A stretch of 64,000 nt of DNA from a virus (IMGVR_UViG_3300025701_000007:1-64000), one strand, 5' to 3'. Counted from the stretch's first letter, positions 11,844-17,924 are shown. A program made the numbers and translations. The notes: generated from the letters alone by a model not told the origin.

Positions 11844-14453
11844 ATGGCAGAAGAAACAAAAGACCCTTTCGGTACCATATACCAGGGAGTTGATACAGAG
11901 ATAAATCCAGACCAAGAAGGTAAATACGTAACGTATAGAGGTAGTTGGATTATAACGGCATACATTAATTTAATGATAGGTCTTGATCATAGTGATACAC
12001 TTAAAATAAAAACATTAATATCGTATCTACATAATAATGCTTGCGCTTTAAATAACGTAAGCGGATGGGACCTACAAAAATCGGCACCATATTTTATAGA
12101 TGTTGTTACAATAGATTTATATAAAAAACTAGGTTACGGTGAAGCCAGTTCTGGAGAAAAATTATTACCATTAAATGAGTTAATAGACGGGTATTACATA
12201 CCCAGCTGTAAAGCAGAAGAGATGCTTTTAGAATCGTACAGAGTAGGTAGCGAACCAGATGAATTAATAAAATATTTAACACCGACAGAAGAAGAATTCT
12301 ACAGACCTAAAACAACACTTTTTACTGACCAAACAGGTAATAATCTACCAGCTAAAGATGCGTCCACACCTAAAATATCTTTTCCTGGTGAATTGAGCGT
12401 TACTTATGAGGAGTATAAAAATGAGTTCACTAAAACTAATATGTTTGTTAGTGATAAAACACCCAACGATTCTAGATTTGGTCAACTACTTACTATACAC
12501 TCATTAACAAACAAGTGGTTTGCTCAGCAATCGAGTGGTTTAGATACAATAAAAACACCCGAAAAGTTAGACGGTAAAGTTATAGACAACAAAGTATACG
12601 AAGGACCATTTATACCATTTGGTGATCAGGGTGATACTAGACTAGCTACCTTCCAAGAAGCCTTAACCTCTGGGGTAGCAACATTTACAGCACTCCAAAA
12701 AACAGAATTATCTGTAAGCGAGGAGGTTACAATTAAAGTTGTTTTTGACAGAGAAGTCCTAGTAGATGATAATTTAGTTATAACCGCTAAGACACAATTT
12801 ATTACCCCCATCAATAAGATTCAGATTATAAACAGTGTTACTAAAAAATCGAGTTTATATATCAAGATACAAAATAACACTAGCACGGTACTTAAAATTA
12901 GTGATATAAAGGTTACTTCGGTAACAGAGGGTTTTTTGGAAGTAAATCCCATAACTACTGAAATAGATAATACCTATGTAGCACCAATAAACTATACTAT
13001 ACCGAATGAAACGGAAAATTATACTATACCCACCGAAACAGAGAACTCTAATTATAACCCTCCAGTAAACAACACGATAGAAAGTAGTGTACCACCAGAA
13101 CCCAGCATCATAGGTCATCCAGAAGGTACTAGCTTCGATTTAAGTTTAGCTAGATCAAAAAATCTAACTCTTAATGGTACTAAACACACGATAACATCTT
13201 TAGGTGGTATAGGTAAAACCAGTACACATGCATTTTATTATATGCTACCTACAGATCAAATAACTGGTAGTACACTTCAAATAAGTTCTCATGGTTTTAT
13301 ATCAGAAGAAAACTATGGTAAAGATAACGGTAAACCAGAAGAGGATACATTATATGATTGGACCGTAAGAAATGAAAGTGGTCAAAATGACCTTAAAAAC
13401 ATATATATACCACCTGCAAGAACTCAGAACTTATCATCTTCTGGTGAAATAAGTATGGGTAGAAGTATGTCTATACCCGTTAGGGCTGGTGAGCAAATAG
13501 GTGAAGTTGGTAACACTGGAGTTAGTACTGGACCTCATTTACATTTTGAACTATCCAACCAAAGCGCCGATACTTACGGTAAAGCGGTTAATTTAGACAC
13601 AGTTGACCCAGAACCCTATTTTGATAACGGAAAAGGTGATGGGTTCGTAAACCCTCTCCCAGCAAAAAATATGAATGTGACCAATGGATTTGGTCCCAGA
13701 AATTTAAGTAATAAAGATGCTTCAAAACAACATGAAGGAGTAGATTTAGGTGCACCTATAGGGACACCAATATTTGCCGTTTATGATGGGGTAATAACAA
13801 CAAGAACCGTAGGTAAGGGTTACGGAAATGTTACTGTAGTAAAACACAATAACGGAAAAACCACGGTATACGGACACCTAAGTGCTTTCACTGCTGTTGA
13901 ATCAGAGTGGTATGATAATAAATCGGAAACAGAATCATCCTCTAACGTTGTTTATAGAACAGGAGAAAGAATTAGTAACTCTGAGGAGGTTAAAAAAGGT
14001 GCTGGAATAGCGAATAAGTTAATGATTGACCTAGGGTTAACAAACTTTCAAGCGGCAGGTATAGTCGGTAATATAAGAGCAGAAAGTTCTATAACACCTA
14101 ACAGAATACAAGGTAGCGGTTTCCGTGTTGGTAAATTAACTATAAACGGTAAGACTGGTTATGGTTACGCCCAATGGACATCTAAAGGTAGACAAGAAAA
14201 CTTAGCTAACTTTGCTAAAACCAAAGGGGTTGATTATAAAAATTCGGAATTAACTGATGACATAAACTACGGGTTCTTAAAAGAAGAATTAAATGGTCGA
14301 TACAATAACGCTCTTAAAAACTTGAAAGCTACTACCGACGTAAGGCAAGCCACTGATACTATATTAAAACAATACGAAAAACCAGCGGATAAGAGTGAAA
14401 CCGCTTTAGACAAGAGAACTAATTACGCTAAAGAGGTTATGGATGCGATGTAG
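11844..14453 (+). CDS. Tail-associated peptidoglycan hydrolase: circularly permuted M23 peptidase plus phage tail lysozyme domain
   Basis: M23 motifs GNTGVSTGPHLHFE, HEGVD and YGHL are present. C-terminal QAAGIVGNIRAES...GYGYAQWT...YEKPA matches the Phage_lysozyme2-type domain. Follows the hub genes. Confidence 0.85.
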   Translation: MAEETKDPFGTIYQGVDTEINPDQEGKYVTYRGSWIITAYINLMIGLDHSDTLKIKTLISYLHNNACALNNVSGWDLQKSAPYFIDVVTIDLYKKLGYGEASSGEKLLPLNELIDGYYIPSCKAEEMLLESYRVGSEPDELIKYLTPTEEEFYRPKTTLFTDQTGNNLPAKDASTPKISFPGELSVTYEEYKNEFTKTNMFVSDKTPNDSRFGQLLTIHSLTNKWFAQQSSGLDTIKTPEKLDGKVIDNKVYEGPFIPFGDQGDTRLATFQEALTSGVATFTALQKTELSVSEEVTIKVVFDREVLVDDNLVITAKTQFITPINKIQIINSVTKKSSLYIKIQNNTSTVLKISDIKVTSVTEGFLEVNPITTEIDNTYVAPINYTIPNETENYTIPTETENSNYNPPVNNTIESSVPPEPSIIGHPEGTSFDLSLARSKNLTLNGTKHTITSLGGIGKTSTHAFYYMLPTDQITGSTLQISSHGFISEENYGKDNGKPEEDTLYDWTVRNESGQNDLKNIYIPPARTQNLSSSGEISMGRSMSIPVRAGEQIGEVGNTGVSTGPHLHFELSNQSADTYGKAVNLDTVDPEPYFDNGKGDGFVNPLPAKNMNVTNGFGPRNLSNKDASKQHEGVDLGAPIGTPIFAVYDGVITTRTVGKGYGNVTVVKHNNGKTTVYGHLSAFTAVESEWYDNKSETESSSNVVYRTGERISNSEEVKKGAGIANKLMIDLGLTNFQAAGIVGNIRAESSITPNRIQGSGFRVGKLTINGKTGYGYAQWTSKGRQENLANFAKTKGVDYKNSELTDDINYGFLKEELNGRYNNALKNLKATTDVRQATDTILKQYEKPADKSETALDKRTNYAKEVMDAM

Positions 14454-15888: not shown

Positions 15889-16842
15889 ATGATTGATTAC
15901 AAAAAGATTGATTGGAGCAAGGCCGCAACAGACACTCTGGCCGATTACGAACAAGCAAAGGCAAAAGCAGCCACAAACTCACAAAAGCGCACTGGCGTTG
16001 ATTTAACTAAGTATTTCAATATAATGCTTAAAGATGGTGAAAACCAAGGAGAAAAGTCTATTAGGATTCTACCTAACCAAGACGATCCAACTAAATGGTA
16101 TAAAGTTGGTTATTTCCACAACGTAAAAATTGGTAGTAGATATACTAAACTATACGATCCAGCTCAAGACAACGAACCTTCACCGTTAAACGAGGCTTAC
16201 AAATACCTTATGAATACTGGTGATAGTGACGACAGAAAAACAGCTAACAGCTATAGATCTAGACAATACTTTATTGTACGTTGTATTGAAAGAGGTAAAG
16301 AACATGAAGGTGTTAAATTCTGGAGATTCCCAGCAGTACAAGACGGTTCAGGTATCATGGATAAAATCGCACCACTAGTTAAAAAATACGGAGCTTTCTG
16401 GAATCCATTCGAGGGTTATGATCTTACTATCTCTATCATTAGAGACAAGTCTGGACCTAACAAAGCTGGTTACAGTAAAGCGGCTTCTATTATTCCAGAC
16501 AGAGAATCTAAATTGTTTGAAGATGAAAATCAAGCAATTCAAACGCTAGAAGACCCTATGGTATGGACTGATGTGTTCAGAAAAAAACCACAAGACTACT
16601 TATTATTGGTTGCTGAAGGTTTAGAACCTATGTGGGATGCTGAGGCTAAGAAATTCGTTGGCAAAGTTGAAGATGGTATTACTACTTATAGTAATGAAAA
16701 ACCAGCAGAAAGAACTAATTACGAAACTCCGACACAGAGTAATACGGCTAGTGAGACAACAACTACATCTGAAGATACTGCTACAGCTCCACAACAACCA
16801 GAAGCTACGACAGAACTAAAGATTGACGACTTACCTTTTTAA
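15889..16842 (+). CDS. ssb: T4 gp32-like single-stranded DNA-binding protein
   Basis: IRILP, RCIERGKEHEGVKFWRF and FWNPFEGYDLTI resemble gp32-family motifs; acidic/Thr-rich tail ending DDLPF; precedes recA. Confidence 0.8.
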   Translation: MIDYKKIDWSKAATDTLADYEQAKAKAATNSQKRTGVDLTKYFNIMLKDGENQGEKSIRILPNQDDPTKWYKVGYFHNVKIGSRYTKLYDPAQDNEPSPLNEAYKYLMNTGDSDDRKTANSYRSRQYFIVRCIERGKEHEGVKFWRFPAVQDGSGIMDKIAPLVKKYGAFWNPFEGYDLTISIIRDKSGPNKAGYSKAASIIPDRESKLFEDENQAIQTLEDPMVWTDVFRKKPQDYLLLVAEGLEPMWDAEAKKFVGKVEDGITTYSNEKPAERTNYETPTQSNTASETTTTSEDTATAPQQPEATTELKIDDLPF

Positions 16843-16934: not shown

Positions 16935-17924
16935 ATGGCAGTAAAAAAAAAGGAATTCTCATTTGACGATATTAAGAAGAAATATAGTTCGTCGACAAAT
17001 TATAAACCAGACGTATTCTTAAATTGTGGACCAACATTTTTAGAAATGACTGGTGTACCTGGACCAGCCACTGGACACATAAATATGTTCCTAGGTCATT
17101 CAGATACTGGTAAAACCACAGCTCTAATTCTAGCAGCTATAGATGCTCAAAAGAAAGGTGCTGTACCAGTATTCTTAATTACAGAAAAGAAATGGGATTT
17201 TAATCACGCTAAACTAATGGGTTTAGATTGTGAACAAGATCCAGAGACTGGTGAATGGGGTGGTAGATTCTTCTATAGAGATGATTTTTTCTATGTAGAA
17301 CAAATAACGGACTACATGAATAAGTTATTAGACGACCAAGCTAAAGGTGAACTACCTTTTGACTTAGTTTTCTTCTGGGATTCAGTAGGTTCTGTACCTT
17401 GTCAGATGACATTCGAAGGGAAAGGCGGTAAACAACACACAGCTGGAGTATTAGCAGATAAAATCGGTATGGGTTTAAACCAAAGGATTAATAGTACAAG
17501 GAAAGAAACTTCTGAATATACTAATACTTTGGTAATTATAAACCAACCATGGGTAGAGAGACCCGATAACCCATTTGGTCAACCCAGAATAAAAGCTAAG
17601 GGTGGTGAAGCGGTATGGTTAAACTCTACCATAATATTCTTATTCGGTAATCAGAAAAACGCTGGTACTAGTAAAATAGATGCTACTAAGAACGGTCGTA
17701 AGGTTAGGTTCGCTACTAGAACCAAAATAGGTGTAACTAAGAATCACGTAAACGGGTTAGGTTATAGTGATGGTAAAATAATCGCCACACCTCATGGCTT
17801 CATTATGGATTCAAAAGACGCTATTGCTGAGTATAAGAAAGAATATTCCGAATACTGGGTTAATACATTAGGTTCTGATGATTATGATATTCACATTAAT
17901 GAACCTGAGGAAGATGAAGATTAA
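16935..17924 (+). CDS. uvsX: RecA/UvsX-like recombinase
   Basis: Walker A GHSDTGKTT, Walker B-like VFFWDSVGS, IINQ and KGGEA motifs. Confidence 0.9.
   Translation: MAVKKKEFSFDDIKKKYSSSTNYKPDVFLNCGPTFLEMTGVPGPATGHINMFLGHSDTGKTTALILAAIDAQKKGAVPVFLITEKKWDFNHAKLMGLDCEQDPETGEWGGRFFYRDDFFYVEQITDYMNKLLDDQAKGELPFDLVFFWDSVGSVPCQMTFEGKGGKQHTAGVLADKIGMGLNQRINSTRKETSEYTNTLVIINQPWVERPDNPFGQPRIKAKGGEAVWLNSTIIFLFGNQKNAGTSKIDATKNGRKVRFATRTKIGVTKNHVNGLGYSDGKIIATPHGFIMDSKDAIAEYKKEYSEYWVNTLGSDDYDIHINEPEEDED

Follow-up and report, generated by a model that had tools for sequence, protein, structure and literature searches.

Gene content and layout of the locus

The DNA analysed here is a 64,000-nt stretch of viral sequence (IMGVR_UViG_3300025701_000007:1-64000), referred to below as the window. 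The features of interest are listed in Table 1. The window contains an ORF for a putative virion-associated peptidoglycan hydrolase (lysin), laid out from the N-terminus to the C-terminus as an N-terminal domain, a variable region, a module designated U, an M23 peptidase domain with its two halves in permuted order, and a tail lysozyme domain. Comparison of the N-terminal domain with Pfam assigned it to no family. The C-half of the M23 domain contains the V.AGE.IG hairpin, the GNTG.STGP loop, HLHFE, a family-specific insertion and DPEPY; the N-half contains FGPR, HEGVD, GYGN and YGHLS.

Table 1. Positions of the lysin gene, its constituent parts and neighbouring genes in the window
Feature	Residues	Position (nt)	Strand	Basis or remarks
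Whole ORF	869 aa	11844..14453	+	Putative virion-associated peptidoglycan hydrolase
Conserved N-terminal domain	1-225	11844..12518	+	Alignments; common to permuted and normal-order relatives
U module	441-525	13164..13418	+	Family-specific, conserved; precedes the M23 domain in either half order
M23 C-half, placed first	538-593	13455..13622	+	Pfam profile positions 63-91; pLDDT 76-97
DNGKGDG linker, from C-half end to N-half start		13623..13643	+	pLDDT >90 in model
M23 N-half, placed second	601-685	13644..13898	+	Pfam profile positions 2-57; superposes on solved M23 chains
Possible hairpin remnant, NVVYRTGERISNS	701-713	13944..13982	+	MAFFT alignment, 5/13 identical
Phage tail lysozyme domain (PF18013)	722-869	14007..14450	+	102.2 bits
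Giant ORF	1137+ aa	182..3595		
Giant ORF	952 aa	3925..6783		
Giant ORF	1682 aa	6783..11831		
Phage SSB		15889..16842		phrog_1192
UvsX-like recombinase		16935..17924		phrog_97

The PF18013 match greatly exceeded the cut-off of 28.2 bits and covered positions 6-140 of the 140 in the profile, and phage tail lysins and endolysins were matched by tblastn. The initial annotation, which was made from the sequence without database searches, had described a tail lysin in which a tail-lysozyme domain follows the M23 domain. The lysozyme domain does occupy that position, and a virion-associated enzyme is supported, but the word 'tail' applies only loosely: some relatives are fused to a giant upstream protein, and a role as an ejection or internal protein would fit equally well.

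The three consecutive giant ORFs matched no family in Pfam or PHROGs. Their products presumably belong to the virion, the tail or the ejection apparatus in an uncharacterised lineage of phages, the host of which is possibly a member of the Bacteroidota. In the window the 1682-aa ORF and the lysin ORF are separate genes, 12 nt apart. In a 2339-aa relative (P0135), the lysin is fused in frame to an orthologue of the 1682-aa protein (45% identity over the full length), and the same fusion is apparently present in three others (L163, L165 and L166); P0394 is also listed among the relatives in which the lysin is fused to the giant upstream protein. Gene split or fusion links the lysin physically to the giant virion protein, and the fusion in the relatives suggests that the lysin probably travels with it. 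The genes for the SSB and the UvsX-like recombinase lie immediately downstream of the structural/lysin block and mark the switch to a replication/recombination module.

Order of the M23 half-domains

The M23 family profile, PF01551, matched the ORF with 78.5 bits (cut-off, 28.7), as two stretches in reversed order. Nucleotides 13479-13565 correspond to profile positions 63-91 (E value 8.1e-10) and nucleotides 13728-13898 to profile positions 2-57 (E value 7.8e-16). The swap was apparent again when PDB M23 chains were compared using phmmer: residues 13-96 of the StM23 chain (9gy1) matched query positions 140-232, and residues 98-132 of that chain matched query positions 90-124. The matches of the M23 halves to Pfam and to PDB chains are far beyond chance. 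The motifs are found in the order HxH (565), HxxxD (630), YxHL (678), rather than the canonical HxxxD, YxHL, HxH. On the basis of homology and motifs, the M23 domain of the ORF is assigned to PF01551, with a permuted topology. The reversal of the halves had been noted in the initial annotation, which also anticipated the two partial PF01551 matches and the coordinates of which proved exact (V546-F593 at 13479-13622, HEGVD at 13731-13745 and the end of YGHLSAF at 13889).

The same order, C-half and then N-half, was found in P0004 (80% identity) and in P0005/P0390 (49% identity), which together with the query are referred to here as the permuted clade. It had been claimed at the outset that all of the zinc and catalytic residues are present exactly once, and this is the case. 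HxGxD (H630 and D634), YxHLS (H678) and HLHxE (H565 and H567) each occur in one copy. By M23 motif, H630, D634 and H567 are assigned as zinc ligands, and H565 and H678 as catalytic histidines. One HxGxD, one YxHLS and one HLHxE were also found in 12 of 12 family proteins checked. The five residues are unchanged across the permuted clade, which spans approximately 50% sequence divergence, and such invariance points to selection that has been maintained on one active site to which both halves contribute. The argument is a modest one, because only three diverged permuted lineages exist.

Predicted folding of the reordered domain

The C-half and N-half were modelled alone with AlphaFold2, using a construct (residues 527-692) from which U and the downstream remnant were left out. 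The mean pLDDT was 87.2 and the pTM was 0.83; the pLDDT of all five models was at least 83.9, and only the first 11 residues fell below 50. The alignment supplied for this prediction contained 106 rows, with P0004, P0005, P0170, 32 tandem M23 proteins and 70 N-half slices from genome loci. In the tandem rows, the first C-half and the second N-half are colinear with the query, so that the depth of the alignment over the C-half derives from proteins whose first C-half and second N-half are parts of separate domains. When half-only slices from 80 genome loci were aligned, MAFFT stacked them on each other or on the wrong half. A longer construct that included U and the remnant (residues 430-725), with a six-row alignment, gave a pLDDT of 32.6, too low to be of use.

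A pTM of 0.83 for segments of approximately 60 and 90 residues means that their mutual placement is confidently predicted as that of one domain. The co-folding of the two halves is a prediction that draws on pTM and pLDDT. Two structural searches using VIA-align placed M23/LytM structures at the top of the list (among them 2gu1, 3slu, 6muk, 9gy1, 4bh5, 7qrl, 4lxc and 2b0p). These matches cover only model residues of about 70-162, with approximately 83-90 residues aligned at an rmsd of 2.4-3 Å and Z scores of up to 8.0; the best superposition of the N-half on solved M23 chains had a Z score of 8.0 and an rmsd of 2.4 Å over 90 residues. Coverage of one half is the expected signature with aligners that follow sequence order, because a circular permutant matches non-sequentially. 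A Foldseek search with the model gave no match at an E value of 0.001 or below. The initial annotation had foreseen a single M23 fold with an intact zinc site. The model is a compact domain, the N-half of which matches M23 chains; the C-half may occupy its canonical three-dimensional place, in which case H630, D634 and H567 would converge on one site.

If the halves do fold together, the zinc site (H630, D634 and H567) and the catalytic H678 and H565 would be assembled from the swapped pieces. It is conceivable, as an alternative, that the domain is permuted and yet catalytically dead or repurposed, serving as a peptidoglycan-binding or structural module like those of EnvC and NlpD and leaving the cleavage of the wall to the lysozyme. 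LytM domains that lack catalytic activity are familiar, and structures of this kind (4bh5 and 7qrl) are among the structural matches listed above. In P0005, moreover, substitutions are present in the conserved GNTG and STGP loops, which are somewhat relaxed. Degenerate LytM domains such as those of EnvC and NlpD typically lose zinc ligands, however, whereas H630, D634, H567, H565 and H678 have all been kept in the permuted clade, and the loss of catalysis is considered improbable. Zinc binding and peptidase activity are putative properties of the permuted domain.

Normal-order relatives and the U module

Relatives of the lysin were recovered using an exhaustive HMMER search, which gave about 73,000 M23 matches at E values of up to 0.001, and a scan of IMG/VR. 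At least 10 of them (P0124, P0391, P0125, P0135, P0394 and L163-L169) have the M23 halves in normal order, and these share with the query both the N-terminal domain and the U module of approximately 85 residues. PF18013 was also found in P0124 and L165. In P0124 and P0125, PF01551 matched as a single stretch (profile positions 2-90). A scan for the half-domains revealed the order U-N-C in all of the normal-order relatives and U-C-N in the query clade; a third order was not seen within the family. A pattern scan of IMG/VR with U yielded seven relatives, all in normal order, and a similar scan with the N-terminal domain yielded none; a word-based search with U yielded the permuted clade only.

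Further differences among the family members were observed. The C-halves of P0124, P0125, P0135, L165 and L168 have a Gly-rich insertion of 6-7 residues in the otherwise highly conserved G.TG.STGP loop, just before HLH, and this insertion is absent from the permuted clade. The C-terminus of P0125 and L167 is also of note: in P0125, PF18013 is replaced by a different region, for which Hydrolase_2 scored weakly and short of the cut-off. Within the family, the second lytic module has apparently been exchanged.

The U module is of particular relevance to another explanation of the data, namely that the region represents two degenerate tandem M23 domains. One would consist of U, as a decayed N-half, and the intact C-half; the other would consist of the intact N-half and a decayed C-half downstream; in neither would the active site be complete. 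In favour of this reading, a plausible register of N-halves over U can be obtained by eye and in a forced MAFFT alignment, a short hairpin-like remnant does follow the N-half, and M23 proteins of the type N-C-N-C are common. When U was compared, using hhalign, with profiles of the M23 N-half, the C-half and the whole domain, the probability did not exceed 1.6%, either with 6 or with 10 U sequences, and U was rejected on these grounds as a degenerate N-half; a search of the ESM Atlas with U returned nothing usable. Furthermore, U is equally conserved in the permuted proteins and in the 10 or more normal-order relatives, in which the N-C domain is complete and no additional C-half exists. Since the relatives carry U without a spare C-half, U needs no such partner, nor is there any ground for supposing that it captures the C-half in the query. 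The remnant downstream of the N-half, for its part, is no longer than about 13-30 residues and contains no HxH motif. The predicted co-folding of the C-half and N-half, in a construct from which both supposed partners were omitted, and the invariance of the catalytic residues of both halves across the clade also argue against the decay of two tandem domains, which is judged to be quite unlikely. The initial annotation had stated that its interpretation would fail if each half paired with a divergent flanking partner; no support for such pairing was found, given that U has no detectable similarity to M23 and also occurs in the normal-order relatives.

Authenticity of the swapped order

An identical 869-aa protein is encoded on 5 contigs from three sources (JGI/IMG, Logan and ENA), and further contigs carry variants that differ from it by 1-5 residues. 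The reading frame is open, and the junctions around the swapped halves are conserved. A local misassembly, which the initial annotation had named as a reason to abandon its interpretation, is excluded by the 5 contigs and by the homologues at 80 and 49% identity. These data effectively refute an artefact of assembly or annotation, for example a misjoined region or a repeat that was collapsed, as the source of the swapped order. Artefacts do occur, as in L083, a stuttered duplicate with stop codons, and P0170, the lone additional protein with the C-N order, is represented by one 2.9-kb contig only.

Outside the permuted clade, a C-half that precedes an N-half was encountered solely in P0170 (384 aa; Logan contig of 2935 bp). 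It consists of an EnvC-like coiled coil, a C-half and an N-half, and it ends inside YxH. P0170 was not accepted as a second independent permutant, as it is a singleton on a short contig, it is incomplete in the manner just described, and its relatives are all of normal order; it may result from truncation or chimerism in the assembly, or may have been permuted independently. L083 (Gemmatimonadetes MAG contig QHUY01000006.1) was similarly rejected as a tandem M23 gene. Part of an M23 gene is present there as an exact tandem repeat, the copies being separated by in-frame stops, and the arrangement resembles stutter in the assembly more than a gene for tandem domains.

Origin of the permuted order

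An insertion of approximately 10 residues is situated between HLH[FY]E and DPEPY in the C-half of the permuted and the normal-order members, and it is absent from generic and tandem M23 proteins. Because this family-specific insertion is shared, the C-half of the query can be considered orthologous to that of the relatives, and not derived from another M23 gene. Homologues in the other cyclic order, as expected for a circular permutant, thus exist: at least 10 proteins with U-N-C, as against the clade with U-C-N. In a maximum-likelihood tree, the four permuted proteins form one clade with support of 100/100. P0124, P0391 and P0125 constitute its sister group, and P0135 and P0394 fall outside at the midpoint root. 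The permuted order has a single origin. Of the two arrangements, it is the derived one, given that the canonical order is found everywhere else.

Between the N-half and the lysozyme domain of the query there are approximately 30 residues, at the place where the relatives have the C-half. Within them, NVVYRTGERISNS was aligned by MAFFT to the V-K-A-G-E-L-I-G hairpin that opens the C-half of the relatives, with 5 of 13 residues identical. This segment is possibly a fossil of the hairpin with which the original downstream C-half began; the remainder of that half would have been deleted. Two near-repeats of 12 nt, each with one mismatch, were also observed. One pairs nucleotides 13323-13334 with 13623-13634 (DNGK in U and the DNGKGDG linker), and the other pairs nucleotides 13631-13642 with 13994-14005 (the DNGKGDG linker and KKGAG, where the lysozyme linker begins). 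These repeats may be traces of rearrangement joints, or may have arisen by chance.

Duplication followed by deletion is the most likely route to the permuted order. The ancestral order would have been U-N-C-lysozyme, and duplication of the N-C unit would have converted it to U-N-C-N-C-lysozyme. Loss of the first N-half and of most of the last C-half would then have yielded the present arrangement, with a short degenerate hairpin left before the lysozyme. An intermediate of the form U-N-C-N-C was not found within the family. Such an architecture is viable in principle, because bacteria commonly encode M23 proteins of the tandem N-C-N-C type; examples include P0126-P0131, P0134 and P0136-P0142. 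Among the bacterial matches, at least 45 tandem proteins, some of them triple, were observed, with linkers of 11-55 residues between the domains. A scan of genomes for tandem M23 loci returned almost exclusively genes with a single domain.

Interpretation and significance

Taken together, the conservation of the order in diverged homologues and in independent assemblies, the existence of canonical orthologues, the shared insertion and the predicted co-folding support the circular permutation proposed in the initial annotation. The M23 domain of the permuted clade is probably a genuine circular permutant, with a zinc site formed from swapped pieces. The segment that normally ends the domain (the hairpin, HxH and DPEPY) would be encoded before the segment that normally starts it (FG.R, HxxxD, GYGN and YxHL), the two would be joined by a 7-residue linker, and the swapped halves would fold together into one M23-like domain. 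Considered jointly with the permutation, the product of the ORF is likewise probably a virion-associated enzyme that degrades the cell wall by means of two lytic modules, one of them an M23 zinc endopeptidase and the other a PF18013 lysozyme. We are slightly inclined to go further, and to suggest that the domain represents the first circular permutant of the M23/LytM metallopeptidase fold that is both natural and catalytically active, and that it arose once, by duplication and deletion, in a phage virion lysin. The initial annotation was aware of no described permuted M23, and a search of the open-access literature for a permuted M23 or LytM domain likewise found none; only the NlpC/P60 precedent discussed below was found, and such an absence is of course no proof.

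It is rare for a natural circular permutation to be observed while both topologies still exist in proteins that are clearly orthologous. In the present family, a permuted clade, sister proteins in normal order, a marker insertion and a possible leftover hairpin document both the event and its likely route of duplication and deletion. If the interpretation is correct, the two forms constitute a matched natural pair with which the tolerance of a zinc-peptidase fold to rewiring might be studied, and the new termini, situated beside U and the lysozyme, might alter the presentation or gating of the active-site groove. For the enzymology of M23 proteins, including antibacterials of the lysostaphin type, the finding would demonstrate that the fold tolerates opening after YxHL and closure across its termini by a linker of 7 residues, which would be useful in the engineering of fusions and sensors. 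For annotation, a pattern of two partial M23 hits can represent a complete enzyme. The functional consequence for the phage is probably small, as the protein would still be a dual peptidase and glycosidase that acts in entry.

Comparison with known systems

Canonical M23/LytM domains, such as those of LytM (2b0p), lysostaphin (4lxc), ShyA (6ue4) and StM23 (9gy1), contain the same motifs as the domain described here (FG.R, HxxxD, GYGN, YxHL, G.TG.STGPHLHFE and vDP), and the N-half of the model superposes on them with an rmsd of 2.4-2.6 Å over 83-90 residues. In contrast to those domains, the order of the halves is reversed, the old termini are joined by the linker, and the chain termini are located in the loop after YxHLS, where the initial annotation had put the break. 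It is because of this topology that sequential aligners match only half of the domain.

The normal-order orthologues (P0124, P0125, P0135 and L163-L169) share with the query the N-terminal domain, U and the insertion after HLH[FY]E. They differ from the U-C-N clade in their U-N-C order and in the Gly-rich insertion before HLH, and several are fused to the giant upstream protein.

Phage virion hydrolases with M23 domains include phi29 gp13 (3csq), an internal protein of the cyanophage A4 pre-ejectosome (9k2v) and Gp16 (9m7n). These are large virion proteins in which M23, often accompanied by a second muralytic domain, digests the wall locally during DNA entry. Their M23 domains are in canonical order, and outside the M23 and lysozyme modules they have no sequence kinship to the query.

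A precedent for the rewiring of a peptidoglycan-peptidase fold by circular permutation is provided by the NlpC/P60 family. Its permuted members (YaeF/poxvirus G6R, LRAT-like; Anantharaman and Aravind 2003, cited in PMC6403190) have the catalytic residues swapped in sequence order. NlpC/P60 proteins are papain-like cysteine peptidases, with another fold and another chemistry, and their permutations are ancient and at the level of families, whereas the permutation described here affects an M23 domain and is confined to one young clade within an orthologous phage protein.
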